Of a stretch of 64,000 bases of DNA, positions 6,159 through 57,490 are shown piece after piece; the stretch's first letter is position 1; every line of letters starts with the position of its first letter. The notes beneath the pieces are model-generated. The model had not been told where the DNA came from. It did not search any database and was given only the letters and a program-made list of their open reading frames with translations. Both the position numbers and the translations under genes were made by a program. The DNA comes from an uncultured Actinomycetes bacterium (GTDB lineage: Bacteria; Actinomycetota; Thermoleophilia; RBG-16-64-13), in the NCBI GenBank assembly GCA_963718375.1, contig CAVQZD010000005.1, positions 186,614 to 250,613 of the forward strand, written 5' to 3'.

Positions 6159-6165
6159 CCGGAGC

Positions 6166-13692: not shown

Positions 13693-16223
13693 GTGCAGAT
13701 GATGGACGCCTCAGCCCTCAGTGACGAAACGACCTGGTCGGTCAACCCGTGTTCTTGGCGGGATGCCGCCAAGATCGCGGCTGAGCTGGAGATACCGCAG
13801 GTTGTCGGCATGGTCCTAGCTGGGCGAGGGCTTTGCGACGCGTCGTCGGCTCGCCGATTCCTCGAATGCAGCGCCCCTCTACCTGACCCGTTTCTCTTCG
13901 AGGACATGGCGGGGGCCGTGGCCGCCGTGCTGAGCGCCGTTGACGAACGACGCAAGATAGTGGTGCATGGTGACTACGATGCCGATGGAGTCACCGCGAC
14001 GGCTTTGATGGTCGGTGGTCTGCGAGCCCTGGGGGCCGAAGTCGACTGGTACCTACCCACTCGCTTCAAGGAGGGTTACGGTCTGTCGGCTGCCGCTGTA
14101 GATGCCATAGCCGACGGTGGTGCCAGCCTGCTGATCACAGTCGACTGTGGGGTCAACTATCCGGCAGAGGTGGCTCTGGCGCGGCAGCGCGGACTAGAAG
14201 TAGTGGTGGTAGATCATCACCAGCCAGGGCCGACCCTACCGGAATGTCACGTGATTCATCACAGCCGCGGTCAATACCCTGACGGTGAACTCTGCGGCGT
14301 CGGCCTAGCCCTGAAGGTACTGCACGCGATACACATGAGGCGGTTCGGCGCTGAGCCCGGCACTTTGCCTGCAGACCTCGCGTCGTCACTCGACCTTGTG
14401 GCAATCGGCACGGTCGCTGATCTCTCGGCTCTGCGCGGCGAGAACAGGTACTACGTGAGGGAAGGGCTGAGGCTTCTGAATCTTGGGCAGCGCGTGGGTC
14501 TGAGGGCCCTCTCTGAGGTGTCGAGCTGCGCGGGTTCCATTGACTCTGGCGCTATCGCCTTCAGACTCGCACCCAGGCTGAACGCGGCGGGGCGTCTTGC
14601 CGACGCCACGCCACCTCTGCGACTTCTCCTCACTCAAGATGAACGGAGAAGCGAGACGTCTGGCTGCGGAGCTGCACGACATGAACGGCCAGCGACAAGA
14701 CCTGGAGAGGACGATGTTCGAGGCGGCCCAGCGCCAGGTCAGCGCTCTGACGACACTGCCGACAGTGTTGGTTCTAGCGGGTACCGACTGGCACGAGGGT
14801 GTGGTCGGCATAGTCGCATCCCGGATGGTGGATCTCTATCAACGTCCCACAATAATGCTGTCCCTGCACGACGGGGTGGCGAAGGGCTCGGGCCGAAGCA
14901 TACCGGCCTATGACCTGCTACGATGGCATCGACGCGAATGGGGCTCTCCTAACGGTGTATGGAGGTCATGCGCAGGCAGCCGGTCTAACGATGAAGGCCG
15001 AGTGTCTGGAGGACTTCCGCATGGGGATGGAGCAACACGCATCGTCTGTGCTGTCAGCGGCAGACCTTGTGCCGCGCTACCGAGCGGACGCCGTCATCAC
15101 CAGCGAAGAGCTGGGCGATGACACTGCGCGGGCTCTAGCCATGCTTGAGCCATTCGGTAGCGGCAATCCGCGCCCTCGCTTGATGGTCGTCGACGCAGTG
15201 TTGCAGAAAGCTGAGCCGACCAGGAACGGCCTACATCTCAGATGCACGGCGCAGGTCGGCGGGGTGCGTATTCCCGCGATAGGCTTTGGGATGGGGCACA
15301 GGTCAAACCAGATGGATGGCAGGCATGTATGCGTCGCCGGGGCGCAACTCAAGGCGGACGAATGGCGGGGGGCATTGCGGCCGCAGCTCATCCTCGAGCG
15401 CGTGGCCGCGTTGGGGCCGACCGTTGACGAGGGGCGCAAAGAGGTGTGTGTAGAGACCGGCATGGCGCCCGCGGCGGGCGCATGGGGCCAGAAGGAGTCT
15501 GGTTCTGCCGCCTTGCAGTGGCCGCGATCCGCGCGCGATCTTCGCGACCGACCCGGGCGATTGACCGCCGTGGCGCAAGTGCTCGCCAGTGGGGAATCGG
15601 TGGTGATGTTCACCATCTCGAGCGCAAGGACTCTAGAACTCTTGAGCGAGCGGTTGCCTATGCACGTCTTGGCCGGGGCGCAGCCGGTGTGCGTCAGGCC
15701 GGGACCCGACACGGTAGATGAAGAGGCTCTCCAAACAGCGAGGCTGACTCTAGTCGAGTGGGGGGCCGCTGCGGATGTCATTGGGAGGCTTGAGGATCGA
15801 GCGCACGTCGTGGTCTTCGACCCGCCTTATCGCAGAGACCAGGCGCTTGCCGTCTCGACTCTGGGTGTGGGGGGGGCCACACTGCATCTTCTGTACGGAG
15901 AGGCGGAGCGCAGAGAGTCCGCGGCGCTATTGCGATACTTGGTGCACCCACGTTTTGCGATGGTCTGCATGTACAACGCGATGCGTTCGGGGGCTGAGAG
16001 GGGAGACGGTGGCATAGTGCAAGGGGCCCGGACACTTGCCTGGGCACAGGCCCGGGTGGAGCTGGGGCCGGGAGAGTGGTGCAGGTCGCAGACCATACTC
16101 AGTGAACTCGGTTTGGCCACTTCGTCAGGAGGAAAGGCTAAACTGGATGCGCGGGCGATCCCTGCATATCAGGCTGCAGAAGCTGACTACGAGGAGTGTG
16201 TTAGGACTTGCCTGACCCTCTAA
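13693..16223 (+). CDS. recJ: Single-stranded-DNA-specific exonuclease RecJ with a ~270-aa C-terminal extension. Two frameshifts (about 14638-14650 and 14908-14922).
   Basis: DHH domain (VVHGDYDADGVTATAL, ITVDCG, VVVVDHHQ) in ORF 13693..14913. DHHA1 (EARRLAAELHDMNGQRQDLE...LVLAGTDWHEGVVGIVASR...GSGRSIPAYDLL) is in frame 2. The remainder (CYDGIDANGALLTVYGGHAQAAG...) is in frame 0, running to 16223 with no stop. Confidence 0.85.
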
Positions 16224-24120: not shown

Positions 24121-24501
24121 ATGGAGTGGGATGCCGACACCATCTGGAAGATCTCGTTGGGCATCTTCTTCGTGCTCTGCGGCGCTGGGGGCGCTTACGC
24201 GCTCTTCAGATTGGGGGACACGCTCAAACAAATGAGCAGCATACTGAGTAGCGTGGATTCCGAGATGTTGCCCCTGCTGACGCGGGTGGAGACCACCCTT
24301 GATGAGGTCAACGGTGAACTGAGCAAGATCGACAAGATCACTGGCTCGATCGCCGAGATCCTGAAGGTGGTAGAAAAGACGACGACAGCCCTGCACAATC
24401 TGTTCGCCGTGCCGCTTCGCAAGCTGGGTGAGCTAGCCGGAGGGGTTGGGGTGAGCGCGAAGTCTTTTGTCGCATCCAAGAACAAAGGGGAGACCTTATG
24501 A
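24121..24501 (+). CDS. DUF948-family membrane protein (stress-associated)
   Basis: 126 aa with an N-terminal TM helix (ISLGIFFVLCGAGGAYALF) followed by a coiled coil, matching the DUF948 architecture. Paired with a YtxH-like gene downstream. Confidence 0.55.
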   Translation: MEWDADTIWKISLGIFFVLCGAGGAYALFRLGDTLKQMSSILSSVDSEMLPLLTRVETTLDEVNGELSKIDKITGSIAEILKVVEKTTTALHNLFAVPLRKLGELAGGVGVSAKSFVASKNKGETL

Positions 24502-24758
24502 GCGCGTTGAAGTCGCTGGGTATTCTTGCCTCCGGCGTGGTGCTGGGCGCCGCAATAGTGATCGCCTATCGCGTCGCTCAGGACAAGGATAAGCCTTTGC
24601 AGGAGGCTTTTGCCGAGGTACCGGCCGAACTGGAGCGCCTCTACACTGGGCTGAAGGCCAAAGGTGCCGAGGCCTACGACAGGGCGCGGCCTGCGCGTGA
24701 GGAAGCACAACCGCAAGTCGCCGACGGGGGCGAGGAGTCCGGCGCAGCCCAGCAATAG
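24498..24758 (+). CDS. YtxH-like small membrane protein
   Basis: 86 aa with an N-terminal TM helix (LGILASGVVLGAAIVIAY) plus a charged helical tail. Start overlaps the upstream stop (ATGA). Confidence 0.45.
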   Translation: MSALKSLGILASGVVLGAAIVIAYRVAQDKDKPLQEAFAEVPAELERLYTGLKAKGAEAYDRARPAREEAQPQVADGGEESGAAQQ

Positions 24759-24771
24759 GAGGCTGCGGGAA

Positions 24772-25176
24772 TTGGCCAACGCTCCACAATCGGTTGTCCT
24801 GACTGTCCCTCGGGGGCCGTTCGCTCTTTCCGCCATGCGCTTGGTCGTGGGCTGGGTGGCGTCGTGTAACGACCTGCCGCTCGATAGGATCGATGATGTC
24901 AACCTCGCTCTGGAGACGCTCATATCGGGCGAGGTGGAACAAGGCGCAGCCCTGGAACTCAGGCTGTCCGCGTGGGATGGAGTCCTGGAGGTCTCACTAC
25001 AGGGTCTGTGCAGTTCAGGGCTCAGGGCAAATCTGCAGGAGAGTGAATCCTTCTCTCCGTCGTTCGAATGGCCGCTCGACATCCGTCTGTTTCTCGGCGC
25101 TCTGCTGGACGACTACAAGATGGTGGACCCTGACGCAGAGTCGTTCGGCGTATTGATGCAGAAGCGGATCCGATAG
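24772..25176 (+). CDS. Putative anti-sigma factor (RsbW/UsfX-position protein) upstream of the SigB/F-type sigma
   Basis: 134 aa from TTG 24772, 9 nt after AGGAGG. The longer 24664 ORF overlaps the YtxH gene in another frame. The stop is immediately followed by the sigma ATG (TAGATG). No clear HATPase N-box, so assignment rests on synteny. Confidence 0.4.
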   Translation: MANAPQSVVLTVPRGPFALSAMRLVVGWVASCNDLPLDRIDDVNLALETLISGEVEQGAALELRLSAWDGVLEVSLQGLCSSGLRANLQESESFSPSFEWPLDIRLFLGALLDDYKMVDPDAESFGVLMQKRIR

Positions 25177-26031
25177 ATGGGTCCGGTCGATGGTCGTGAG
25201 AAGCAGTCAGGCGGGGATTCTGTGCGCGGCGGCACCAAGAGGCGCTTGGAGGGCGTGCCAGAGCACGAGCTCATGGCGCGACACCGGCTGGAGAATGATG
25301 CGGCTGCCCGCGAAGAACTGATCACGAGATACTTGCCGTTGGTGCGCAGCCTGGCGCGTCGCTTCATCTCGCGTGGGCAGCCGCTTGAGGACCTGATACA
25401 GGTGGGGTCGATCGGTCTGATCAAGGCCATCGACCGTTTTGATATGGATAGGGGCGTGGAGCTGTCCACGTATGCGACCCCCACCATCCTTGGCGAGATC
25501 AAGCGCTATTTCAGGGACAAGGGCTGGGCTGTCAAGGTGCCCAGGGCTCTGCAGGACCTGAACGTCAGACTCAACAGGATCATCGAACACATGACTGTCG
25601 ACCTGCAGCGCTCCCCGACGATTGCTGAACTTGCGGCGGGAGCCCAAGTGACAGAAGAAGAGGTCGTGGAGGCTCTCGAGAGCGGTAGAGCCTACAGCTC
25701 TGTGTCCATCTTCTCCGGCGGTTCCGGTGAAGACGAAGAATCGCTTGAGTTGCTAGACTGCTTGGGCCAAGAGGAGAAGGCCTATGAGCTTGTAGAGCAA
25801 AGGCGTTTCTTGGCACCGGCTATGGAGCGTCTCGATCCGCGAGAGCGCCTCATTCTGCACCTACGCTTCTTTGAGGGTATGACACAGACGCAGGTGGCGG
25901 CACGAATCGGCATTTCGCAGATGCACGTGTCCAGACTCATCCGCAAGTCGATAGACAACTTGCGGGACACGATGATGCAGCAACAGGCCACTTCGGGGGC
26001 ACAGGGGAGAGAGGGTAGGAGTCCTAAGTGA
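25177..26031 (+). CDS. RNA polymerase sigma factor, SigB/SigF/SigG (group 3) family
   Basis: Region 2 (YLPLVRSLARRF...DLIQVGSIGLIKAIDRFD...STYATPTILGEIKRYFRD), region 3, and region 4 (LILHLRFFEGMTQTQVAARIGISQMHVSRLIRKS). 284 aa. Confidence 0.88.
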   Translation: MGPVDGREKQSGGDSVRGGTKRRLEGVPEHELMARHRLENDAAAREELITRYLPLVRSLARRFISRGQPLEDLIQVGSIGLIKAIDRFDMDRGVELSTYATPTILGEIKRYFRDKGWAVKVPRALQDLNVRLNRIIEHMTVDLQRSPTIAELAAGAQVTEEEVVEALESGRAYSSVSIFSGGSGEDEESLELLDCLGQEEKAYELVEQRRFLAPAMERLDPRERLILHLRFFEGMTQTQVAARIGISQMHVSRLIRKSIDNLRDTMMQQQATSGAQGREGRSPK

Positions 26032-30306: not shown

Positions 30307-31170
30307 ATGTGGTTGCCCAATCGAAGAAATGCCGACGCTGCTGTTCAGGTCGTCTGGCTCTTCGGACATCCGATCGGTCACTCACTGTCGCCTACGATGC
30401 AGAACGCGGCCTTCCTGCATGCGGGATTGGCGCTCCGGTATGTCGCGCGGGACGTTGGGCCTGGGGTACTGGCGGAAGCGATAGAGGCCTTGCATTCTCA
30501 GTGCGCCAAGGGCGCCAACGTGACTGTGCCTCACAAACAGGCTGTTCTGTCGATGTTGGATGAGATTGAACAGCAAGCGGCGACAATCGGGGCGGTAAAC
30601 ACTATCGTTCATGAGAACGGACGGCTGAAAGGCCACAATACGGACGTAGGTGGATTTCGGAGGTCGCTTGAAACCGTGCTGCCCGGGGGTGCGAACGGTC
30701 GAAAGATCCTGGTGCTGGGGGCAGGGGGAGCTGCTCGTGCGGTTCTGGCCGCACTGCAGCAGGACGAAGCATCTTTGATACTGGTCGCCAACAGGACCAT
30801 GGAACATGCGCAGGGGCTTTGTCAAGTCGCTGGCGGGTGGGGCCCGGCCAAATGTGCTGCGCTGGGCCTCGACGAGGTGGAGACGGCGGTCGCAGACTGC
30901 ACGGTGATAGTGAACGCCACGTCGCTGGGAATGGTAGGGTCGGTCAAGGAGTTGCCCATCGATGTCGATATTCTGAAGAGCGGCCAGGTGCTGGTGGACC
31001 TTGTCTACGGTGCCGACGATACAGCGCTCGTCAAGGCGGCGCGGGGGGTAGGCTTGGTTGCCATTGACGGCAGGGAGATGCTGGTGCAGCAAGCCGCGCT
31101 GTCCTTCAAATTGTGGACGGGCCTCGAAGCGCCCGTCGATGTTATGCGAGGTAGCCTAATTGGCGGTTAA
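30307..31170 (+). CDS. aroE: Shikimate dehydrogenase
   Basis: LFGHPIGHSLSPTMQNAAF...NVTVPHKQAV...GAVNT...GHNTDVGGF...ILVLGAGGAARAV. 287 aa. Confidence 0.9.
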   Translation: MWLPNRRNADAAVQVVWLFGHPIGHSLSPTMQNAAFLHAGLALRYVARDVGPGVLAEAIEALHSQCAKGANVTVPHKQAVLSMLDEIEQQAATIGAVNTIVHENGRLKGHNTDVGGFRRSLETVLPGGANGRKILVLGAGGAARAVLAALQQDEASLILVANRTMEHAQGLCQVAGGWGPAKCAALGLDEVETAVADCTVIVNATSLGMVGSVKELPIDVDILKSGQVLVDLVYGADDTALVKAARGVGLVAIDGREMLVQQAALSFKLWTGLEAPVDVMRGSLIGG

Positions 31171-32914
31171 GGGCGACACTTCAGACGCACCTGTAGCAGG
31201 GCAGGAGAGCCTCCAGAGAAGGCTTTCCGGCAAGCGTACGGGCGAAGTCCTCGTAGAGATGGGCCTGCTGACCTTGGAGCAGGTGGATCAGGCAATCGCT
31301 GAGCAGCGGGTATCGCACCAGCGCATCGGCGATATCGCCCTCGAGAAGGGCTGGGTCACCAAGTCCACCCTGATGGAAGCACTTGGTCTGCGTCTGGGCG
31401 TGAAATACCTTGACTTGGCTTCCACTCGCATCGACCCGATCACTGCTGACCTCATATCAGAGCGCGATGCTCGTCGCTACGCCGCTGTGCCGGTGAGTTT
31501 CGTTGACGACCACACGCTGCTTGTGGCCATGGCCGATCCGTCGAACATAGTGGCGGTCGACGACCTACGCATACTTACAGGGTTCGACATAGAGCCGGCT
31601 ATCGCGACCAACGAAGACATCACGGCGATGCTCGCGAAACTGAGGTCGGCTCAGGACGACATGTCTGAGGGCACCGACCTGACGACGACCACTGACGACG
31701 ACGAGGCCAATGCGGTAGAACTTCGGGACATCAGAGAGCAGGTGGATGCCGCCCCGGTGGTCAAGCTGGTGAATGGTGTCCTCGCAAGGGCGGCGGACGA
31801 GGGAGCGTCTGATATCCACTTCGAGCCACAAGCGAAGGATCTGATGGTCCGCTTTCGACACGACGGGGTGCTGCATGAGATCATGACTATCCCCAGGCGT
31901 CTGCAGCCCGGCGTGCTATCTCGTCTCAAGATCATGGCGGACCTGGACATCGCTGAACGCAGGGTCCCGCAGGACGGCCGCATAGGCCTGGTCGTTGGTG
32001 GTCGACCGATCGACATGCGCGTGGCCTCCTTGCCCACCGTATATGGGGAGAAGATCGTCATTCGCCTGCTGGATCGAGGCAACGTGATGCTGCATCTGGA
32101 GCAGCTTGGGTTTTCTGATGTCGCCTTGAGCCGCTACACCAAGTCTTTCACCAAGCCCTATGGAGCCATATTGGTCACGGGGCCTACCGGTTCGGGCAAA
32201 TCGACGACCCTGTACGGAACGCTCAACATCCTCAATACCGCAGACAAGAACATCATCACGGTCGAGGACCCGGTCGAGTATCGTCTACAGGGCATCAACC
32301 AAGTGCAGATCAACCAGAAAGCAGGCTTGACCTTCGCCTCGGGCCTCCGTTCTATCCTACGTTGCGATCCAGACATCATCATGGTCGGTGAGATCCGCGA
32401 CCGGGAAACCGCGCAGATTGCTGTAGAATCCGCCCTGACTGGCCATTTGGTGCTATCGACCCTGCACACCAACGACGCCCCGGGCGCACTCTCGCGCCTC
32501 ACTGAGATGGGAGTGGAGCCCTTCTTGACGGCTTCTGCGGTCGACTGCGTCATAGCGCAGCGCCTAGTGCGGAAACTCTGCGAATATTGCCGGGAGGCAT
32601 ACCCTGTAACCAAAGAGATGCTCGAGCGACTTGGGTTCCCGCGGGGAGCGGTGGATGACTGGAAGGACACTCAGTTGTACAAGCCGACTGGATGTACTCG
32701 CTGCAACGGCACGGGCTACAAGGGCCGGCTGGGCATCTACGAGATAATGCCCGTCACTGAAGCTCTCGAGAGGCTTATAGTAGAACGCAAGAGCGCCGAT
32801 GAATTGATGAGAGTGGCTGTTGCGGAGGGCATGGTATCGCTGAGGCACGACGGGTTGCAGCGGGTGTTGGAGGGTGTGACCTCGGTCGAGGAGATATCGC
32901 GGGTCATCGTATGA
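31160..32914 (+). CDS. pilB: Type IV pilus assembly ATPase PilB (GspE family) with an N-terminal GSPII_E_N domain
   Basis: GSPII_E_N domain (GLLTLEQVDQAIAEQ..., LDLASTRIDPITADLIS), Walker A ILVTGPTGSGKSTTLY, and a tetracysteine motif CEYC...CTRCNGTG. 584 aa. Confidence 0.9.
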   Translation: MAVKGDTSDAPVAGQESLQRRLSGKRTGEVLVEMGLLTLEQVDQAIAEQRVSHQRIGDIALEKGWVTKSTLMEALGLRLGVKYLDLASTRIDPITADLISERDARRYAAVPVSFVDDHTLLVAMADPSNIVAVDDLRILTGFDIEPAIATNEDITAMLAKLRSAQDDMSEGTDLTTTTDDDEANAVELRDIREQVDAAPVVKLVNGVLARAADEGASDIHFEPQAKDLMVRFRHDGVLHEIMTIPRRLQPGVLSRLKIMADLDIAERRVPQDGRIGLVVGGRPIDMRVASLPTVYGEKIVIRLLDRGNVMLHLEQLGFSDVALSRYTKSFTKPYGAILVTGPTGSGKSTTLYGTLNILNTADKNIITVEDPVEYRLQGINQVQINQKAGLTFASGLRSILRCDPDIIMVGEIRDRETAQIAVESALTGHLVLSTLHTNDAPGALSRLTEMGVEPFLTASAVDCVIAQRLVRKLCEYCREAYPVTKEMLERLGFPRGAVDDWKDTQLYKPTGCTRCNGTGYKGRLGIYEIMPVTEALERLIVERKSADELMRVAVAEGMVSLRHDGLQRVLEGVTSVEEISRVIV

Positions 32915-32956
32915 GCGACTGCCACGGCAGAGTGGGTCGCGGAGAGGCTTACAGAT

Positions 32957-34021
32957 ATGGACATCACTGAGATTCTGAAGCAGGTAGTGGCCGTTGGAGC
33001 GTCCGATTTGCACCTATCGGTCGGTGTGCCGCCCGTTGTGCGCGTCGACGGACACTTGGAGGCCTTGGACTACCCGCCCCTCGAGCCGATCGGCATTCGG
33101 GAGATGGTGTATAGCATCCTCTCGCAGGATCAAAGACAGAAGCTTGAGACAGACTGGGAGCTTGACCTGGCGTATTCGCTATTCGGCGTGGCTCGCTTCC
33201 GTGTGAACGCCTTCTTCCAACGAGGGGCGCTGGCCGCAGCATTCAGGATGGTCCCCATAGAGATCAGATCCATTGATGAGTTGGGACTCCCCAAAGTCCT
33301 TCACTCTTTCTGTCACAAACCACGCGGTTTCGTGTTGGTCACAGGCCCGACGGGGTCCGGCAAGTCGACCACCCTCGCTGCGGTGATCGATGAGATCAAT
33401 CAGACACGCTCCAACCACATAGTCACCATCGAAGACCCCATCGAGTTCTTGCACATGCACAAGCGTTGCGTCGTCAACCAACGGGAGTTAGGCACTGACA
33501 CGAAGTCGTTTCCGGCGGCACTGCGGGCAGCTCTCCGTCAGGATCCCGACGTAGTGCTGATCGGCGAGATGAGGGACATCGAGACCATGCAGATAGCCCT
33601 CACTGCGGCGGAGACGGGCCATCTGGTCTTCGCCACGCTGCACACGCAGGATTGTCCGCAATCTATCGATCGCATCATCGACGTGTTCCCACCGCATCAG
33701 CAGGAGCAGATCCGAGTACAGATCGCCGCGACTCTCGAAGGGATTGTGTCCCAGCAGTTGCTGCCAAAAGTGGGCAGCAAAGGTCGCGTGGCGGCTTGTG
33801 AGGTCCTCATTCCGACGCCGGCCACGCGCAACCTGATACGCGAGGGCAAGACCCATCAGCTCTACACCGTGATGCAGACTGGTAGCCAGCAGGGCATGCA
33901 GACCATGAACGCAGCGTTAGCCGAGCATGTGAAGCGTGGCCGCATATCCAAGGATAACGCGATGCGCAGGACTGTCGCCCCCGAAGAGCTGGAGCGGCTT
34001 CTGCTGGTAGGAGCCGCGTGA
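32957..34021 (+). CDS. pilT: Twitching motility retraction ATPase PilT
   Basis: VAVGASDLHLSVGVPPVVRVDG...FVLVTGPTGSGKSTTLAAVIDEIN...ITIEDPIEF...AALRQDPDVVLIGEMRD. 354 aa. Confidence 0.9.
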   Translation: MDITEILKQVVAVGASDLHLSVGVPPVVRVDGHLEALDYPPLEPIGIREMVYSILSQDQRQKLETDWELDLAYSLFGVARFRVNAFFQRGALAAAFRMVPIEIRSIDELGLPKVLHSFCHKPRGFVLVTGPTGSGKSTTLAAVIDEINQTRSNHIVTIEDPIEFLHMHKRCVVNQRELGTDTKSFPAALRAALRQDPDVVLIGEMRDIETMQIALTAAETGHLVFATLHTQDCPQSIDRIIDVFPPHQQEQIRVQIAATLEGIVSQQLLPKVGSKGRVAACEVLIPTPATRNLIREGKTHQLYTVMQTGSQQGMQTMNAALAEHVKRGRISKDNAMRRTVAPEELERLLLVGAA

Positions 34022-34148
34022 CAGTCGGCGAACACTACTCTTGGTGAAGAATCTGACAAGCCGCTCGTACATGTGGGCATTTGTGCCGATATTGAACACA
34101 GGGACCTATTAGCAGCGGTGTCTGCAGGCTAGGGTAAGAGGAGTCAGC

Positions 34149-35363
34149 GTGGCGACATACGTATACACGGCGCGCAAGGACCGGGGTGGAATGTTGACCG
34201 GCGAGGCGTCGGGTGATTCCAAGCAAGCTGTGGTCGCTGATCTCAAGCGCAAGGGAATGACAGTCCTGAAGCTTGAGGAGAAGCGCGGGGCGCTGAGCAT
34301 CCAGTCGCTTCTGGAGAGCTCAACAAAGATCAAGACACGCGACAAGGCTGTGTTCGCGCGCCAGTTCGCCACTATGATCCAGTCGGGTCTAGCTGTGCTC
34401 CGAGCTCTGTACGTGCTCGAAGAACAAACGCAGAATCCGAGATTCAAGAAGATCATTGCCTCGCTGAGGGGTGATGTCGAGGCCGGTATGTCGCTTTCAG
34501 ACGCTATGGAGCGCTATCCAGTCGCCTTCGACAAGCTATACGTGTCCATGGTGCGAGCAGGCGAAGTGGGTGGTTCGTTGGACCAGTCACTCAACCGTCT
34601 CGCGACACAGCTTGAAAAGGATGACAGCATCCGCCGCACCGTAAAGTCCGCCATGGCCTATCCGGTGATGATAGCGTCGTTCGCCATATTGGTGGGTGTC
34701 GGCATGTTGCTTTTCATCATACCGATCTTCGCGAAGATGTATGACGACCTCGGAGGTCAGCTTCCCCTTCTGACGCGCGTTATGATGGGCCTGAGCAACT
34801 TCATGAAGAGTTACTGGTTCATCATCATCCCGATGCTGATTGGGCTCGTCTGGGGCTTCCGCAAATGGAAGGCCAGCGATCAGGGCCGGCGCACGTGGGA
34901 TCGCATCAAACTGAGGCTTCCTATGAAGCTCGGCCCGGTCGTCCAGAAGATCGCGGTATCTCGCTTTAGCCGTACCATGGCGACGCTTGTGAGTTCTGGT
35001 GTGCCCATACTTCAAGCGATCGACATCACCGGCAAGACTTCGGGCAACTCGGTCATCGAAGATGCCATGGTGGACGTCAAGGAGAGTGTGCGAAGTGGTG
35101 AATCGATTGCCAAACCGCTGAGCCGCGTATCTGTGTTTCCCCCGATGGTGACCCAGATGATCTCCATCGGTGAAGAGACCGGCGCCTTGGACAGCATGCT
35201 CAACAAAGTGGCCGACTTCTATGAGGACGAGGTCGACACCACGATCAAATCGCTGACCTCGATCCTAGAGCCCATCATGATGATCTTCGTCGGCGGCATG
35301 GTAGGTCTGATCGTCATCTCCATGTACTTGCCGATGTTCAGCATGATGAACCTCGTCCAGTAG
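34149..35363 (+). CDS. pilC: Type IV pilus platform protein PilC (GspF family)
   Basis: Two T2SSF repeats (FARQFATMIQSGLAVLRAL... and FSRTMATLVSSGVPILQAI...) with three TM helices. 404 aa; GTG start after GGTAAGAGGAG. Confidence 0.9.
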   Translation: MATYVYTARKDRGGMLTGEASGDSKQAVVADLKRKGMTVLKLEEKRGALSIQSLLESSTKIKTRDKAVFARQFATMIQSGLAVLRALYVLEEQTQNPRFKKIIASLRGDVEAGMSLSDAMERYPVAFDKLYVSMVRAGEVGGSLDQSLNRLATQLEKDDSIRRTVKSAMAYPVMIASFAILVGVGMLLFIIPIFAKMYDDLGGQLPLLTRVMMGLSNFMKSYWFIIIPMLIGLVWGFRKWKASDQGRRTWDRIKLRLPMKLGPVVQKIAVSRFSRTMATLVSSGVPILQAIDITGKTSGNSVIEDAMVDVKESVRSGESIAKPLSRVSVFPPMVTQMISIGEETGALDSMLNKVADFYEDEVDTTIKSLTSILEPIMMIFVGGMVGLIVISMYLPMFSMMNLVQ

Positions 35364-35501
35364 GAAGCCGGCTGGCAGAACTGCAGTTGGCCTATGGAGT
35401 GCGCTCGCGAAACCGCTGAACGCTGGATGGAAACCGCTAGTCTATAGTGGCACACCCAATGCACGATAATGTGCATTATGTCTACTCGATAACAGGGCGG
35501 T

Positions 35502-36020
35502 TCATTCCTCGTACTTCAGCAGACTGAAGACCTCATGACCAGAGAGCTTGTCCCTACCCCCGAGGGCAGTCAATTCAATCAGGAAGGCGAGTCCCGCCAC
35601 GACGCCGCCCGCGTCCTCGACAAGCTTGACGTTCGCGGCTGCTGTGCCACCGGTCGCAAGCAGATCGTCATGGATGAGTACGCGCTGCCCAGGTTTCACC
35701 GCATCTGAGTGGATCTCAAGGGCGTCCGTGCCATACTCGAGGTCGTATTCGCAACGGCTGACCGTCCAAGGCAGTTTGCCGGGCTTACGAGCAGTCGCAA
35801 ACCCAACACCCAGCTTGTAGGCTAGCGCAGCGCCAATAATGAAGCCTCGAGCCTCCGCCCCCATGACCAGGTCGATCTCGCGGCCTTGGGCGAACTCCGC
35901 AAGTCGGTCGACCGAGTAGCGCAGTGCGTCGCCATCTTGCAGAAGCGGCGTGATGTCGTGAAAGAGGATGCCCTCTTTCGGAAAACCTGGAATATGGCGG
36001 ATATACGTGTCGAGTTCCAT
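35502..36020 (-). CDS. apt: Adenine phosphoribosyltransferase
   Basis: PGFPKEGILFHDITPLL...VMGAEARGFIIGAALAY...VLIHDDLLATGGTAAA PRPP-binding motif. 172 aa. Confidence 0.92.
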   Translation of the reverse strand: MELDTYIRHIPGFPKEGILFHDITPLLQDGDALRYSVDRLAEFAQGREIDLVMGAEARGFIIGAALAYKLGVGFATARKPGKLPWTVSRCEYDLEYGTDALEIHSDAVKPGQRVLIHDDLLATGGTAAANVKLVEDAGGVVAGLAFLIELTALGGRDKLSGHEVFSLLKYEE

Positions 36021-36096
36021 CTCTCTCCTTCTGGTAGTCAGCGCGCGCCGTGTCGTAAAGGTCAGCGACTACGTCGCCCAAGTGGCCTTCTGACGC

Positions 36097-36837
36097 TTAT
36101 GAGATGACGCGGCGCAGCTCGCGGCGAAGTAGCAGCCGCGTCAGTTGCGCGAAGAGCATGCCAAGTTCCTCAGCCGTCCGCAGACCGTATTCCTTCCTGT
36201 CGGCGTGGCCAGAGCGGAGGTCGGGAGTCGCTATCTGCTCGATCAGGCCGGCTTCGCGTTCAGCGGCTGAACTCAAAATGCGAAGGTGGCGCGGTTCGAC
36301 TTGGAAGTGGCCGAGCCTCTGACATATGCGGGCGGTCTCCAAGTCACTCTCGGTGAAGGAGGGTCCCGAGTCTGCGGCGCTCTCCACCAGTCTGAACTCC
36401 ACGAGACCGTTCACAAACTCCTCCTCTACCCCAAGCGCCGTGCAGAATTCGTCCAGGGTATAGACAGGCGTTTCCCGTCCAAGAGACATCGTCTGTGTGG
36501 CTGCATAGACTGAAGGGTCAGGACTACCTCCCCCTGCGGAGCCGTAGGCGTCCATCCGCTGGCGGATCACATCGAGTGGTAGGTATTCATCCCTTTGCAT
36601 CGAGAGCACGCTGCGCAGTCTCTTGGCGTCAGCTCTGGAGTACTTCCGATACTTACCCCGGGTACGCTGAGGATCTACAAGCCCTCTGTCCTCAAGGTAC
36701 CGTACTTTGCTTATCGACAGATCGGGAAAGTCTGGCTGCAGTTCTCTCACCAGCTGTCCTATGCTGATCAGCCTGTCCGGGCTATCCTCCGAGCGCCTCT
36801 GGGGGCTTGCAGCCAAACCGGTCGCAGCGTCAGCCAT
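36097..36837 (-). CDS. MerR-family transcriptional regulator with a duplicated MerR-like domain (Rv1828-type)
   Basis: N-terminal HTH ISIGQLVRELQPDFPDLSISKVRYLEDRGLVDPQRT..YRKYS plus a second degenerate MerR-like repeat (YTLDEFCTALGVEEEFVNGLVEFRLV). Sits downstream of the GarA-like and gcvH genes, as in actinobacteria. Confidence 0.75.
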   Translation of the reverse strand: MADAATGLAASPQRRSEDSPDRLISIGQLVRELQPDFPDLSISKVRYLEDRGLVDPQRTRGKYRKYSRADAKRLRSVLSMQRDEYLPLDVIRQRMDAYGSAGGGSPDPSVYAATQTMSLGRETPVYTLDEFCTALGVEEEFVNGLVEFRLVESAADSGPSFTESDLETARICQRLGHFQVEPRHLRILSSAAEREAGLIEQIATPDLRSGHADRKEYGLRTAEELGMLFAQLTRLLLRRELRRVIS

Positions 36838-36846
36838 ACCCCTACC

Positions 36847-37326
36847 TCACTGTGTGATGTTCTGTTGGAGAAAGACCAACTTGAACTTCCCGATCTGTAG
36901 CTCGTCTCCGTCGAACAACTGGTGCCGCTCGATGCGTCTCCGGTTGACGTACGTGCCGTTCAGGCTGCCCTCATCTTCTATCATGTAACCGCTTGCATCC
37001 ACGAGAATGCGAGCGTGTCGCCGTGACACCGTGACGTCATCGAGAAAGAGGTCGCTTTCCGGCGTGCGACCGATGGTCACCACCGGTCCGACGACACCTA
37101 TGAGCTCCCCCTCCCTGTCATTCGGTGACCGGACTTGCAGCACCGTGCCTTGGGCCGGAAGCAAGTCAGCTGGGGTGGGCACGTTGCGCGCGGCGCGGAC
37201 GGAGTATCTCTCAGTGGTCTCATCAGGAGATCTGTGCGTTTCGAGATGGCAACCGCACCGTCTGCAGTATGCAGAATCAGCGGTGTTTTCGACGCCGCAC
37301 TCTTGGCACTTGACCATAGCCCCCAC
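36847..37326 (-). CDS. GarA/OdhI-like FHA-domain protein with an N-terminal C4 zinc ribbon
   Basis: The C-terminal FHA domain is near-identical in motif to GarA (TIGRTPESDLFLDDVTVSRRHARI...GSLNGTYVNRRRI...DELQIGKFKLVFL). N-terminal CQECG..x12..CRRCGC zinc ribbon; an ETTERYS stretch resembles GarA's phospho-acceptor ETTS motif. Confidence 0.8.
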   Translation of the reverse strand: MGAMVKCQECGVENTADSAYCRRCGCHLETHRSPDETTERYSVRAARNVPTPADLLPAQGTVLQVRSPNDREGELIGVVGPVVTIGRTPESDLFLDDVTVSRRHARILVDASGYMIEDEGSLNGTYVNRRRIERHQLFDGDELQIGKFKLVFLQQNITQ

Positions 37327-37343
37327 CCCGATGCTGATCAGTA

Positions 37344-37628
37344 CTATTCCTCTGGCGTGCCTGCGTTACACCCCTTGGTCGCCAATATGTCTGCTAGGCC
37401 TGCCACATCCCCGTCCACCACTAAGCTCTTGGGCGCGGCGCTGCTGTCGCGAAGCCTTCTCACCAACTCAGCCCTCACGATGTCCAACTCGCCCTGCAGT
37501 AGACGACGCTGTTTGGATACCGCTGCTTCTTGGTCAGCAAGCGATCTAGCGAGGTCCTTCAGTTCGTCATCCGAGTAAGCCTGGATGTTGACTAGACGTT
37601 CGAAAGAAGACTCGTCCACAGCGTTCAC
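37344..37628 (-). CDS. Small conserved hypothetical coiled-coil protein (94 aa)
   Basis: Codon usage consistent with its neighbours. GTG start at 37628 lies about 6 nt downstream of a TATAGT box, suggesting a leaderless mRNA. Charged helical sequence (LADQEAAVSKQRRLLQGELDIVRAELVRRL). Confidence 0.4.
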   Translation of the reverse strand: MNAVDESSFERLVNIQAYSDDELKDLARSLADQEAAVSKQRRLLQGELDIVRAELVRRLRDSSAAPKSLVVDGDVAGLADILATKGCNAGTPEE

Positions 37629-37633
37629 ACTTT

Positions 37634-37662
37634 CACTATAGCCGTTAGCAACGAAACCTTCA
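37634..37662 (-). promoter_or_regulatory. Sigma-70-like promoter (TTGAAG-17 nt-TATAGT) for the small ORF, probably leaderless. The palindrome ACTAGTCTAGAC lies just upstream.
   Basis: On the minus strand: ttgaag gtttcgttgctaacggc tatagt, then gtg start 6-7 nt later. Local GC is well below the window average. Confidence 0.35.
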
Positions 37663-37730
37663 ACTTGAGGTCTAGACTAGTATCCCCCCAATTGCGACGC
37701 TTCACACACCGGGCATCGGCTCGCGGTGCG

Positions 37731-38114
37731 TCAGTCTTCAGCTGCCAGGATCGCGTCGTATTCCTCTACGCTCAAGAGCTCGTCGGCCTCGCTTGAATCT
37801 CTCATCTTGATCTTGATGAGCCAGCCATCTTCGTACGGGCTCTGGTTGAGGGTCTCGGGCGCGTCAATGATGTCCTCGTTGATCTCTATGACGGAACCAC
37901 TCATGGGTGCGTACACGTCAGACACGGCCTTCACCGACTCCACCTCTGCGTATGGCGTCCCAACTGTGACGTCCGCGCCTACCTCTGGGAGTTCGATGAA
38001 GACGATATCACCGAGGGTCTTCTGGGCATAGTCGGTGATGCCGAACACGGCGTTATCACCGTCTAGGCGTACCCAGTCGTGCTCCCTGTGGTACTTGAGG
38101 TTCTTAGGGTTCAC
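37731..38114 (-). CDS. gcvH: Glycine cleavage system H protein
   Basis: YHREHDWVRLDGDNAVFGITDYAQKTLGDIVFIELPEVG...AEVESVKAVSDVYAPMSGSV with the lipoyl-lysine motif. 127 aa; GTG start with AAGGAG RBS. Confidence 0.93.
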   Translation of the reverse strand: MNPKNLKYHREHDWVRLDGDNAVFGITDYAQKTLGDIVFIELPEVGADVTVGTPYAEVESVKAVSDVYAPMSGSVIEINEDIIDAPETLNQSPYEDGWLIKIKMRDSSEADELLSVEEYDAILAAED

Positions 38115-38253
38115 CTGCGCTCCTTTCTTGCCATACCCGGCTGCGCGTCATGATAGCACAGCAGTATTCACAGCCACGGTCGCTAAAGTCCGCGCCTTCG
38201 GTCCCCGACTTGTATACTGTTGGTGGCAACGACGAAAGCTGAAGGAGGGCACA

Positions 38254-38757
38254 GTGGCCCGACGCAAGGGACTCGTCATCAGTGACGAGCAGATGAAGGT
38301 TATTGATGGCGTGCTCTCGAAGCTGCAGCATGTGACCGGTTCGCATTTCGTCGCTCTCATCTCCACAAGCGGTCAGCCCATTACGGTATCTCCGGCCGAC
38401 GCTCAATCAGACACGCTGTCGCTGGCCGCGCTCGCTGCGGGTTCTTTCGCGGCCACACGACAATTGGCTGAGGTCCTCAAAGAGCGCGAGTTCACACTCC
38501 TCTTCCACGAGGGCAAGGAGTCGAACCTGCATGTGATCCAAGTCACGGACCAGATCCTCATGCTGCTGACTTTTGGACACGAGACTCAAGTGGGATTGGT
38601 CCGTCTCTACACCACTCGCGCGCTTGCGGTGTTGAAGCCCATCTTTGAGCGTTCCGAGGACAGTGACGGGGAGGCCCGGCTTATCGACCAGGAGTACTCT
38701 CTTGAGGCCGGGACTGCGCTCGATGACCTGTTCAACGAACAGGACTCGGAACAGTAA
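38254..38757 (+). CDS. mglB: Roadblock/LC7-domain protein MglB (GTPase-activating protein for MglA)
   Basis: From GTG 38254 (GAAGGAGGG RBS): KGLVISDEQMKVIDGVLSKLQHVTGSHFVALISTSGQPIT...LSLAALAAGSFAATRQLAEVL...LVRLYTTRALAVLKPIFE, collinear with Myxococcus MglB. An acidic C-terminal tail follows. Confidence 0.8.
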   Translation: MARRKGLVISDEQMKVIDGVLSKLQHVTGSHFVALISTSGQPITVSPADAQSDTLSLAALAAGSFAATRQLAEVLKEREFTLLFHEGKESNLHVIQVTDQILMLLTFGHETQVGLVRLYTTRALAVLKPIFERSEDSDGEARLIDQEYSLEAGTALDDLFNEQDSEQ

Positions 38758-38770
38758 CGGGGGAGCTACT

Positions 38771-39355
38771 GTGGCACTCATCAACCTAGCGGCCAGGGAG
38801 ATCAACTACAAGATCGTCTACTATGGCTGCGGTCTCTGCGGGAAGACTACGAACATCCAGTACATCCATCGACGGGTCAACCCTGCCGCTCGGGGTCGCC
38901 TAGTCAGCATCGCTACGGAAGAAGAGCGCACCCTGTACTTCGACTTCCTTCCGCTCTCACTGGGGACGGTGAAGGGCCTTCGTACCAGGTTCCATCTGTA
39001 CACCGTTCCAGGTCAGTCGTTCTACAATGCATCGCGAAAGCTGGTGTTGCAGGGCGTCGACGGTATCGTCTTCGTCGCGGACAGCCAGGTATCGAGGCTC
39101 GATGAGAACGTGGACAGCTATCTGAACCTGTGGGACAACCTGCGATCGCAGAATGAGGACCTCTCGAGCCTGGGGATGGTCCTGCAGATGAACAAGCGTG
39201 ATCTAGGCAACATATTCAGCGTGAGCGATCTAACAGAACTCCTCAACCACACGGGATCTCCTGTGTTGGAGGCGTGTGCGCTCACAGGGGTGGGTGTGTT
39301 TGAGACGCTGAAGACCGTCTGCAAGCAAGTGATAGCCAAGAGTTCTCGCTCCTGA
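38771..39355 (+). CDS. mglA: Ras-like small GTPase MglA (motility/polarity regulator)
   Basis: From GTG 38771: [24 protein letters not shown]...[53 protein letters not shown]...NKRDL...GVGVFETLK aligns essentially residue-for-residue with M. xanthus MglA ([19 protein letters not shown]...[33 protein letters not shown]). Confidence 0.9.
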   Translation: [194 protein letters not shown]

Positions 39356-56007: not shown

Positions 56008-56916
56008 CTACTCCTCCACTCGGGCTCGCGGATGAGCTTCCTGGTATACCTTCTGCAGGTGTGAGGAACTGACGTGGGTATAGATCTGGGTGGTAGAGAG
56101 ATCGGCGTGGCCCAACATCTCCTGTACCGCTCGGAGGTCAGCGCCCCCCTCAAGCAGGTGTGTCGCGAAGGAATGCCGCAGGGTGTGTGCCGACACATCG
56201 TCCGAGAGCCCAGCCTCGCGGGCGTAGCGCTTCACGATCAGGTGAAGCCCCTGCCTCGACAGCCGGCGTCCGTGCTCGTTCAGGAAGAGTTCTGGTGACT
56301 TTAGGCGCCCAGCGCCGCCAAGTAGACGGCGGCCACGCTCGTTGTAGGCCTGTAATGCCTCGACCGCCATCCGTCCCAGGGGTACCACCCTCTCCTTATC
56401 GCCCTTGCCTATTGTGCGCACGAAGCCCACCTCAAGGTCTACATCCTGGATGCGCAGAGCGAGCAACTCGGAGGCTCGTAGTCCGGCGCCGTACAGTGTC
56501 TCCAGTAGAGCTCTGTCCCGCAGCCCACGGGGGTCCGACTTGGGAAGAGCCAGCATCCTTTCCACTTCGGCGATACTGAGCACCCTCGGCAACGTTGCCT
56601 CCAAGCGCACCCCGGCAAGCGACTTCGTCGGGTCCGCGGCAATGAGTCCCCCCAGGACGGCGTACCTGTAGAACGATCTGATCGCGGCAGCCTTTCTTGC
56701 CCTAGTCGACGGACGCCACTCCTCGGCTCCGAGGAAAGCACGCACGTCCTCACTTGACGCCGCAAGCAGGCGCACATCTCTCGACTCCAGGAACTCACCG
56801 AACTGAGTCAGATCTCTTCCATACGCAGCCGTCGTGTTGTCAGACAGCCCCTTCTCGAGCCGAAGGGCGCGCAGGTGGGCGTCTATCAGACTACGATTCT
56901 CAGGCTTCAGTCCCAT
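56008..56916 (-). CDS. xerD: Tyrosine recombinase XerD (chromosome dimer resolution)
   Basis: N-terminal SAM-like domain ([22 protein letters not shown]). Catalytic R...HxxR...Y residues ([52 protein letters not shown]). ATG at 56916; the longer ORF starts at 56979. Confidence 0.88.
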   Translation of the reverse strand: [302 protein letters not shown]

Positions 56917-57490
56917 AGCCTGGCTCCTCCTGAAGGAGGCGTAGCGCTGCAAGTGTCTTGGCGTCGGGAATCTCTGCAAGCCGATGGCGAAGCTCCATCA
57001 GCGGGATGCGCTCCACTGCGAGTTCTTCGTCGATGTCGGGGTCAGCGTCTTGCTGCGTCAGACCCCACGCCAGGAACACATGGAGCTCTTCGTTCAGAAA
57101 GCCAGGTGATGAGAAGAAGGAACCTAGCGGCCTCCAGTCGTCGGCGATCAAACCGACCTCTTCGCGCAGCTCACGTTTCGCGGCTGCCAACGGCTCCTCC
57201 CCGGGCTCGAGCGTGCCGGCGGGGAGTTCGATCAATGACTGACCTACCGCATGGCGATATTGCCGCACGAAGTACACATGCCTGTCATCATCGAGCGCTA
57301 TGATCACCACTGCGCCGGGATGATCCACGACTTCGCGGACGGCCTTGGTCCCATCGGACAGCACGATCTCATCCACCCTCAGCGAGATGATCCGGCCCTC
57401 ATATACCTGCCGAGAGCTCAACACTTCTGGAAGTGTGCCCGAGTTGCCGGCCGAGTCAGGATCAGTTCCGTGCGCGGGCGTCATGCTCAT
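56900..57490 (-). CDS. NUDIX hydrolase (ADP-ribose pyrophosphatase-like)
   Basis: Nudix box GTLEPGEEPLAAAKRELREEVG. 196 aa; sits between pyrG and xerD as the Rv1700 homolog does in mycobacteria. Confidence 0.85.
   Translation of the reverse strand: MSMTPAHGTDPDSAGNSGTLPEVLSSRQVYEGRIISLRVDEIVLSDGTKAVREVVDHPGAVVIIALDDDRHVYFVRQYRHAVGQSLIELPAGTLEPGEEPLAAAKRELREEVGLIADDWRPLGSFFSSPGFLNEELHVFLAWGLTQQDADPDIDEELAVERIPLMELRHRLAEIPDAKTLAALRLLQEEPGYGTEA

Follow-up and report, generated by a model that had tools for sequence, protein, structure and literature searches.

A putative zinc-ribbon form of the GarA/OdhI regulator encoded between rsiG and ftsR in early-branching Actinomycetota

Organisation of the locus

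On the reverse strand of a 64-kb stretch of DNA from an uncultured actinobacterium (contig CAVQZD010000005.1; the whole stretch is referred to here as the window), four co-directional open reading frames (ORFs) fill a 2-kb interval and encode, in the order of their transcription, the glycine-cleavage H protein GcvH, a 94-residue RsiG-like protein, a 156-residue protein with a forkhead-associated (FHA) domain, and FtsR, a MerR-type regulator of cell division (Table 1). The third of these is our main subject. Its sequence and predicted structure point to a counterpart of the actinobacterial regulators GarA (Mycobacterium tuberculosis Rv1827) and OdhI (Corynebacterium glutamicum cg1630) in which a four-cysteine zinc ribbon precedes the FHA domain, and we refer to it as the ZnR-FHA protein. 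The original prediction, made from the sequence alone, had proposed a gcvH/FHA/MerR cluster here, and the cluster is real, with all four ORFs confirmed to the exact coordinate. The spacers are 102 nt between gcvH and rsiG, 26 nt between rsiG and the FHA gene and 9 nt between the stop codon of the FHA gene and ftsR; a further 76 nt separate ftsR from the apt-like gene that follows it.

Comparisons were made across 87 loci that carry a gene for such a protein. Eighty came from a genome scan with the family alignment and are almost all from Thermoleophilia (Solirubrobacterales, Gaiellaceae and Thermoleophilaceae, including Patulibacter medicamentivorans and a Conexibacter isolate); the other seven (L081–L087), from exact-protein look-ups, represent closer relatives of the window, a sister lineage, Rubrobacter indicoceani and Rubrobacter metagenome-assembled genomes (MAGs).

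A leaderless-type promoter had been suggested for the 94-residue ORF, and this part of the original prediction stands. The promoter listed in Table 1 is the sole promoter-like site in the interval 35900–38400, and both of its hexamers, together with the GTG start codon, are unchanged in five diverged genomes (the window, L081, L082, L086 and L087). That they are kept while the flanking intergenic DNA varies is a phylogenetic footprint that supports a promoter of this type, and the position of the −10 element implies that the rsiG mRNA would be leaderless. The Rubrobacter loci have TATACT 7 nt ahead of the rsiG ATG. No terminator-like site was found throughout 35900–38400, including the gap between ftsR and apt, and apt is the probable last gene of the transcription unit. 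The locus as a whole is thus predicted to be a conserved operon of early-branching Actinomycetota, comprising rsiG, the ZnR-FHA gene, ftsR and probably apt, downstream of gcvH.

Table 1. Features of the rsiG–ftsR locus, in window coordinates
Feature	Position	Strand	Basis
gcvH, glycine-cleavage H protein, 127 aa	37731..38114	-	Pfam GCV_H 5.9e-44; NCBIfam TIGR00527 163.5 bits vs cutoff 115.9
Sigma-70-type promoter, TTGAAG-17-TATAGT	37635..37663	-	-10 ends 6 nt before the rsiG GTG
rsiG, single-motif RsiG-like, 94 aa	37344..37628	-	Pfam PF22802; PDB RsiG matches
Predicted c-di-GMP-binding motif in RsiG, EAAVSKQRRLLQGELD	37482..37529	-	E34-x3-S38-x2-R41-x3-Q45-x3-D49 read from the sequence
Zn-ribbon / GarA-OdhI-like FHA protein, 156 aa	36847..37317	-	Pfam FHA 1.3e-20; OdhI 2kb3 and GarA 6i2q ~1e-24
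Putative C4 zinc ribbon, residues 1-27 (C4, C7, C18, C21)	37237..37317	-	Cys conservation; AlphaFold2 hairpins
E33-T34-T35, predicted phospho-acceptor equivalent to ETTS of GarA/OdhI	37213..37221	-	Alignment; low pLDDT
FHA domain, residues ~58-152	36862..37146	-	AlphaFold2 pLDDT ~90; Foldseek OdhI/GarA
ftsR, MerR-family regulator, 246 aa	36097..36837	-	NCBIfam NF050798; Pfam MerR_1 + MerR_2
apt-like phosphoribosyltransferase, 172 aa	35502..36020	-	Pfam Pribosyltran

The FHA domain is of the GarA/OdhI type

The likeness to GarA and OdhI that had been proposed for the FHA protein is upheld. Its best relatives among solved structures are OdhI (2kb3, 8p5x) and GarA (6i2q, 8p5r, 2kfu), with E values from 2.7e-24 to 1e-22 and an identity over the FHA domain of about 50% (46–50% in Foldseek alignments), and the next FHA family, Rv1747, follows only at 7e-13. 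An AlphaFold2 model built on an alignment of 107 homologues has a predicted local distance difference test score (pLDDT) of ~90 over residues 58–152. The top 13 Foldseek matches to this model are all OdhI or GarA (best 8p5x_G and 6i2p, with a template-modelling score of ~0.9 on the target), and the matches include chains from complexes with OdhA, KGD and PknB. In NCBIfam, the best family is the OdhI equivalog NF041660 (107.8 bits, model positions 23–129 of 130).

The residues of the target-binding face are also conserved. All members of the family share the canonical phosphothreonine-pocket residues R84, S98, R99 and N120. In the cryo-EM structure of OdhA with OdhI, Arg53, Lys132 and Arg134 of OdhI contact OdhA (PMC10415282); their equivalents are R63 (kept in 95 of the 107 homologues), K144 (kept in all) and K146, which is Lys or Arg in all. 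Like GarA and OdhI, then, the ZnR-FHA protein is a single-FHA protein of ~150 residues with a shared fold, the same phosphothreonine pocket and the same OdhA-contacting basic residues, and its gene lies directly upstream of ftsR. We regard it as their probable positional and sequence counterpart.

The family appears to be of modest size. When the full protein was used as the query in an exhaustive search of cluster representatives, the top of the results was dominated by multi-FHA proteins with additive scores, and only ~15 representatives were ZnR-FHA proteins matching over their full length in a single stretch. The closest labelled relatives, at ~55% identity, are from MAGs of Thermoleophilia and of organisms given simply as 'Actinomycetes'.

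A predicted zinc ribbon precedes a conserved, putative phospho-site motif

The ribbon has the pattern C4-x2-C7-x10-C18-x2-C21. Its four cysteines, and with them the CxxC-x10-CxxC spacing, are invariant in all 107 homologues, as are D14, S15 and G22. Orthologues in Rubrobacter, Conexibacter, Patulibacter, Gaiellaceae, Thermoleophilaceae and the sister lineage have the cysteines too. AlphaFold2 models residues 1–30 as paired β-hairpins (pLDDT ~75). The C4 ribbon of the original prediction is, on this evidence, genuine, and is predicted to bind zinc.

Could the ribbon instead be an artefact of annotation, either an extension from a start called too far upstream or a decayed ribbon that no longer binds metal? 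The window protein itself scores below the Pfam gathering cutoff for Zn_Ribbon_1 (20.6 vs 25 bits), and zinc binding is a prediction. Relatives do pass, however: P0098 scores 26.9 bits with Zn_Ribbon_1 and also exceeds the cutoff for DUF7577 (30.0 bits). The gene start argues in the same direction. An alternative GTG at 37326 would give 159 residues, three more than the ATG at 37317, which is preceded by the Shine–Dalgarno-like sequence GGGGTGGGGG and gives a protein of 156 residues beginning MVKCQEC. The ATG is most likely the true start, as in the public gene call (P0001, 156 aa) and in all homologues, whose N-termini read M-[IV]-K-C or equivalent. The original prediction had named a start at MVKCQE or later as one that might leave the protein without a metal site. 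The MVKCQE start is borne out but the loss of the site is not, the first cysteine (residue 4) being present either way, and the scenario of a mis-called extension fails because the shortest credible start already includes it. Moreover, homologues use no in-frame start between ATG 37317 and the FHA domain, and the cysteines are shared by three classes or lineages. We therefore consider an artefact very improbable, and this reading already close to refuted.

Directly after the ribbon, at a distance of ~8 residues, comes the predicted phospho-site, E33-T34-T35-E36-R37-Y38. When nine ZnR-FHA orthologues from three lineages were aligned with OdhI and GarA, the T35 column was invariant, T35 falling opposite T15 of OdhI and T22 of GarA, and Y38 opposite the Phe of ETTSVF; the cross-check of the reference sequences in this alignment covered OdhI residues 32–139 only. 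The ETTS motif of GarA and OdhI is itself confirmed in PMC12321487. In the wider family, position 35 is Thr in 99 of 107 sequences and position 34 in 79, and the residue three places beyond T35 is Tyr, Phe or Leu in 87. The motif lies in the sole long low-confidence segment of the AlphaFold2 model (residues 32–55, pLDDT <50), which is predicted to be disordered; the T-T-x-x-aromatic motif of GarA and OdhI likewise lies in a disordered segment.

The original prediction had this region half right. The ETTE stretch (E33–E36) is indeed kept, but the ETTS phospho-site has not given way to the ribbon, since a T-T-x-x-[Y/F] motif that aligns with ETTSVF follows the ribbon. What differs from GarA and OdhI is the segment before the motif, an unstructured leader of 12–18 residues in those proteins and an invariant C4 zinc ribbon in the family described here, together with the last residue of the motif (ETTS there, ETTE in the window protein). 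The ZnR-FHA protein can thus be described as a GarA with a ribbon in place of the leader and with the phospho-site apparently kept. All the structural prerequisites of a GarA-type phospho-switch are conserved.

A longer, 260-residue form occurs in the sister lineage, with a strongly conserved, all-helical extension of ~90 residues (..GIQKRFRDLSVDVREERVIRYIV..) ahead of the zinc ribbon. It is found in L001, L002, L074, L086 and L087 (for example at L087 4923–5708) and is represented by the proteins P0053, P0067, P0087, P0089, P0096, P0098, P0106, P0110, P0114 and P0116. The extension has no sequence match in Pfam, NCBIfam or the PDB, and neither in the window nor in the other loci was it found as a stand-alone gene; an AlphaFold2 model of the 260-residue form from a 10-sequence alignment had a pLDDT of 50, too poor for a fold search.

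The operon encodes a single-motif RsiG

The 94-residue ORF had been taken for an anonymous coiled coil. It matches the Pfam RsiG-like family PF22802 well above threshold (2.9e-15; 56.2 bits vs a cutoff of 27), and in the PDB it matches RsiG of Streptomyces venezuelae (6pfj_T, 1.3e-8) and of Rubrobacter radiotolerans (7lq2_B, 1.8e-6; 7lq2–7lq4, ~2e-6). Its N-terminus aligns with those of its homologues. The motif that binds cyclic di-GMP (c-di-GMP) in RsiG, E-x3-S-x2-R-x3-[Q/H]-x3-D (PMC8325347), is present as E34 AAV S38 KQ R41 RLL Q45 GEL D49. The protein is thus in all probability an RsiG, a predicted c-di-GMP-dependent anti-sigma factor of WhiG, and its 94 residues with one motif place it among the single-motif RsiG proteins, which are homodimeric and in 2021 were known from five genomes of Rubrobacteria and Thermoleophilia. 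RsiG of R. radiotolerans sequesters WhiG and has type IV pilus genes under its control, and two-hybrid assays for RsiG and WhiG exist for Rubrobacter, Conexibacter and Patulibacter (PMC8325347). The exact 94-residue sequence was not found in the public protein collection, so that the gene may be unannotated in the source genome.

With the single-motif proteins of R. radiotolerans, Conexibacter woesei, P. medicamentivorans and Thermoleophilum album (PMC8325347; PDB 7LQ2–7LQ4), the window protein shares a length within the range of ~90–107 residues, one copy of the motif on a long helix, a C-terminal helix with DGDV..L..IL, and a Pfam RsiG-like score above the cutoff. The gene order is shared as well, the rsiG, ZnR-FHA and ftsR block being found in P. 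medicamentivorans (L045), a Conexibacter species (L069) and Rubrobacter (L083–L085). There are differences, however. The lineage of the window represents a further group, its FHA protein being ~55% identical to the best matches from Thermoleophilia MAGs; the variable position of the motif is Gln in the window and His in Thermoleophilia; and no WhiG gene lies within the window, the pairing of its RsiG with a WhiG (a sigma-28-family factor, expected to be of the WhiG2 clade) being predicted.

In R. indicoceani, the RsiG that the block encodes shares 87% identity with the R. radiotolerans protein of known crystal structure, and the P. medicamentivorans locus has a single RsiG gene, at this very position. 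It follows that the experimentally studied RsiG proteins are very probably encoded in the operon described here. A seeming second RsiG in L045 and L060 was rejected as a spurious, Arg-rich read-through. In one Thermoleophilaceae MAG (CAYVWQ010000010.1; L020 5440–5990, forward strand), the single-motif RsiG unit occurs in full twice in succession (..EQEISYSRRILHGKIDLLRAEL.. followed by ..EREISYQRRILHGKIDILRAEL..) within one ORF directly upstream of the ZnR-FHA gene. The gene seems to have undergone an internal duplication independently, of the kind proposed as the origin of the twin-motif RsiG (PMC8325347).

The MerR-type gene is a single FtsR

The gene downstream of the ZnR-FHA gene scores 210.4 bits against the NCBIfam FtsR equivalog NF050798 (cutoff 150), over model positions 2–223 of 223, and its C-terminal half (residues 140–244) matches the structure of Rv1828 (5ydc, 3.6e-8). 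It therefore appears to be one orthologue of Corynebacterium glutamicum FtsR (cg1631) and Mycobacterium tuberculosis Rv1828, with a MerR helix-turn-helix domain and an Rv1828-type C-terminal domain, and, like theirs, its gene lies directly downstream of a garA-like gene. The 'duplicated MerR' of the original prediction does not hold up. There is one gene, whose two MerR-type Pfam matches (MerR_1 and MerR_2) reflect the normal FtsR architecture, and an internal duplication was rejected, BLASTP finding no similarity between the two halves. The ftsZ gene, whose promoter is among the DNA targets of FtsR, lies outside the window.

The pairing of odhI or garA with ftsR is a conserved hallmark of actinobacteria (PMC6683498). 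The downstream partners differ, however: in the classical cluster, odhI and ftsR are followed by a bifunctional nuclease gene and a second merR gene (PMC6683498), and both are missing at the window locus, where apt follows ftsR. A further difference is the insertion of rsiG upstream of the FHA gene. The order of gcvH and the FHA gene in the window is the same as in M. tuberculosis, where garA lies downstream of gcvH.

Conservation of the gene triad

The triad of rsiG, the ZnR-FHA gene and ftsR spans Rubrobacteria, Thermoleophilia and the lineage of the window itself. An RsiG-like gene lies directly upstream of the ZnR-FHA gene in 85 of the 87 loci, each of the 85 having the [Q/H] motif, and FtsR lies directly downstream in 86, the exception being at a contig edge. 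The surroundings are far more variable. Apt follows ftsR in 41 loci, including those of Rubrobacter, and gcvH precedes rsiG in seven; in Rubrobacter that place is taken by der or a GlmU-like gene, and in Solirubrobacterales by other genes. Because the genes further upstream differ among lineages in this way, the triad has been maintained through changing surroundings.

Only two loci, L027 and L039, have the ZnR-FHA and ftsR pair but lack rsiG upstream. In L027 (5989–6471) the upstream genes, identified by eye, encode a membrane protein and a prolyl-tRNA-synthetase-like protein. The label of this locus, 'MAG: Bifidobacterium breve', on a contig of Thermoleophilia type, looks like a binning or labelling error.

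Conserved order need not mean shared function. The three genes might simply be inherited neighbours near the replication terminus that serve separate pathways. Going by Streptomyces gene numbering, rsiG and garA are not known to be adjacent in Actinomycetes, and in the relatives of the window the block around the triad (der, plsY, apt, aroE, yceG and others) is syntenic as well. The cause of the garA–ftsR adjacency, moreover, is unexplained even in well-studied species, the most that has been said being that 'a functional link ... might exist' (PMC6683498). This explanation is hard to reconcile with the way in which the triad outlasts changes in its flanks, and the short spacers (from a 4-nt overlap to ~50 nt) and single conserved promoter imply co-transcription and selection for linkage. 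We think it quite unlikely that the linkage is without functional meaning.

The components of this locus are each of a known kind: a GarA/OdhI protein, a single-motif RsiG and an FtsR. What appears to be new, against the literature searched, is that GarA as a rule has a zinc ribbon in Rubrobacteria, Thermoleophilia and the lineage of the window, that this ribbon form retains the TT phospho-motif, and that its gene is embedded in a conserved, probably leaderless operon with rsiG and ftsR. In that literature no paper describes the linkage of the three genes and none joins 'RsiG' with 'forkhead-associated'; the experimental papers on RsiG mention neither FHA, GarA, FtsR nor MerR, and among the top-ranked matches no paper combines GarA or OdhI with 'zinc ribbon'. 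The architecture, its conservation, the orthology-grade similarity to GarA and OdhI, and the synteny are direct observations.

Proposed mode of action

How might such a protein work? We favour, as probable, the reading that it is a GarA-type FHA adaptor under the control of threonine phosphorylation and equipped with a zinc ribbon; its phosphorylation, autoinhibition, targets and ribbon partner are what we infer beyond the observed architecture. In the unphosphorylated protein, the phosphothreonine-binding face of the FHA domain would engage target proteins, which in other Actinobacteria are the E1o component of 2-oxoglutarate dehydrogenase, glutamate dehydrogenase and glutamate synthase. Phosphorylation of T34 or T35 would fall to a Hanks-type Ser/Thr kinase, the part that PknG or PknB plays for GarA and OdhI, and the phosphothreonine, with its aromatic residue at +3, would then fold into the protein's own FHA pocket, switching it off and releasing the targets. 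As the ribbon is only ~8 residues from T34/T35, self-binding of phosphorylated T35 would drag it against the FHA domain. The ribbon itself probably provides a second docking surface, independent of phosphorylation, by analogy with the zinc finger through which the archaeal protein ArnA docks on ArnB; its partner might be the kinase or a metabolic enzyme, or else one of the operon neighbours, RsiG/WhiG or FtsR.

Several points weigh against this reading. The score of the protein against NF041660 is below the 200-bit equivalog cutoff, so that it is not a curated OdhI member by NCBIfam. AlphaFold2 places no fixed contact between ribbon and FHA domain (predicted template-modelling score 0.58). In the alignment that equates the phospho-sites, the reference sequences are cross-checked over the FHA region of OdhI only. 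Among the 62 of 63 called ORFs of the window that were scanned for domains, none encodes a Ser/Thr kinase, a PP2C phosphatase, E1o, glutamate dehydrogenase or glutamate synthase, the only kinase-like protein being an atypical kinase of the ABC1/UbiB type (11948–13258). The distribution of the protein raises a further difficulty. GarA and OdhI are described as specific to Actinobacteria and as having co-evolved with the fused OdhA enzyme (PMC12321487), but Rubrobacteria are reported to lack OdhA and Thermoleophilia to have an unusual E2-E1o fusion (bioRxiv 10.1101/2020.07.24.212647). The zinc-ribbon form occurs in both classes, and its presence in Rubrobacteria means that the ancestral target may not be OdhA. 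Finally, the near-universal linkage to rsiG (85/87) is unexplained by a purely metabolic role.

The last two points are what an alternative modelled on ArnA would account for. In ArnA of Sulfolobus acidocaldarius (Saci_1210), a zinc-finger ribbon and a disordered linker precede the FHA domain; the zinc finger holds the partner weakly and irrespective of phosphorylation, and the FHA domain grips it tightly through phosphothreonine (PMC12852372). ArnA is the only studied protein with this ribbon-linker-FHA layout, which we liken to that of the ZnR-FHA protein from the sequence and model of the latter: in both, an N-terminal C4 ribbon and a long disordered linker are followed by a C-terminal FHA domain. 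It is, moreover, a kinase-controlled adaptor that regulates an organelle related to type IV pili. By analogy, the ZnR-FHA protein would bind RsiG, WhiG or FtsR, through its ribbon constitutively and through its FHA domain after phosphorylation. Type IV pili and cell division would then answer to Ser/Thr kinases as well as to c-di-GMP, and any role in 2-oxoglutarate metabolism would be secondary or absent.

The positions of rsiG, directly upstream in 85 of the 87 loci (26 nt away in the window and overlapping by 4 nt in Rubrobacter), and of ftsR, 9 nt after the FHA gene, favour this alternative. So does a neighbourhood with pilB, pilT, pilC and an MglA/MglB-like pair, given that RsiG and WhiG control type IV pili in Rubrobacter (PMC8325347). 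Neighbouring genes need not have interacting products, however, and in L027 and L039 the ribbon is kept although rsiG is not next to the gene. By sequence, the FHA domain is much nearer to GarA and OdhI (~1e-24) than to ArnA, a detectable but distant relative (4.5e-11), and the OdhA-contacting residues are conserved. The window RsiG lacks the N-terminal T-F-P-D of its Thermoleophilia counterparts, which might serve as a pT-x-x-D site. ArnA, for its part, is archaeal, has a zinc finger of RanBP2 type, and in the literature searched is not described as having a self-inhibitory TT motif. Its partner ArnB is a von Willebrand factor A (vWA) protein; no ArnB-like vWA gene lies nearby, and no vWA domain was found among the scanned ORFs of the window or the called genes of L081–L087. 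On balance we regard the ArnA-like alternative as unlikely, though it deserves consideration.

A slightly less likely, related possibility is that the ribbon tethers the ZnR-FHA protein to one of its operon neighbours and the FHA domain reads a phosphothreonine written by a kinase. If this were so, one operon module would let early-branching Actinobacteria combine c-di-GMP and Ser/Thr phosphorylation, and perhaps 2-oxoglutarate status as well, in controlling type IV pili and cell division. Mycobacterium and Corynebacterium, whose GarA has neither the ribbon nor the linkage, would on this view retain a derived remnant specialised for metabolism.

The locus also has a wider significance. To our knowledge, GarA and OdhI have been studied only in Corynebacteriales and their close relatives. 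That basal classes carry a structurally different GarA, even the Rubrobacteria reported to lack OdhA, is relevant to the question of what GarA originally did. The single-motif RsiG of known structure is encoded in one operon with this FHA protein and FtsR, a linkage that offers a concrete test of why garA and ftsR adjoin and of whether the c-di-GMP/WhiG switch receives kinase input. These findings leave the existing paradigm unchanged on present evidence, but they are directly testable and should interest specialists in actinobacterial signalling.

Surrounding genes

Divergent from gcvH on the forward strand are genes for a Roadblock/LC7 (MglB-like) protein and a small Ras/Arf-like (MglA-like) GTPase (38035–39355), and pilB, pilT and pilC (31160–35363, forward strand) lie on the other side of the operon. 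This arrangement is kept in L001, L002, L074, L081, L082, L086 and L087, and it fits the role of RsiG and WhiG in type IV pilus control in Rubrobacter.

The sole sigma factor gene in the window (25177–26031, forward strand) is of SigB/SigF/SigG type (TIGR02980, 291 bits) and was for this reason rejected as the WhiG partner of RsiG. No anti-sigma or anti-anti-sigma partner was identified for it in the window; a divergent ORF of 295 residues beside it (24195–25082, reverse strand) has no Pfam or NCBIfam match. No GGDEF or EAL domain was found among the scanned ORFs. Promoters of WhiG/flagellar type (TAAA, 14–16 nt, GCCGATAA, with up to two mismatches) are not enriched in the window (4 vs 5.5 expected). 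One such match with two mismatches, TATA-15-GCCGATGA at 32776–32802 (forward strand), lies in the 3′ end of pilB, ~155 nt upstream of pilT, and may be due to chance given this lack of enrichment.

The window has ~60% G+C, and its remaining genes serve core housekeeping functions. Several of these appear split or truncated (7248–8388, 13693–16223, 9604–10419 and 5785–7044): tgt is in two ORFs, an ORF with a DHH domain and another with a RecJ_OB domain resemble halves of recJ, and secD and queA are partial. Similar splits affect der, pilC and yceG in L082. The split genes of the window suggest frameshift errors of long-read assembly, not true pseudogenes.

The gap between the convergent pilC and apt genes holds a dif-like chromosome-dimer resolution site, ATGCACGATAA-TGTGCA-TTATGTCTACT (35461–35488, forward strand), which coincides with a change in the sign of the GC skew and with a flip in gene orientation, so that the operon abuts a probable replication terminus. 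The dif-like core GATAATnnnnATTATGT occurs once in the window (0.01 expected), in the same apt/pilC gap in L081, where its position was checked, and once each in L001, L002, L074, L082, L086 and L087. A gene for a recombinase of XerC/D type is found at 56008–56979.

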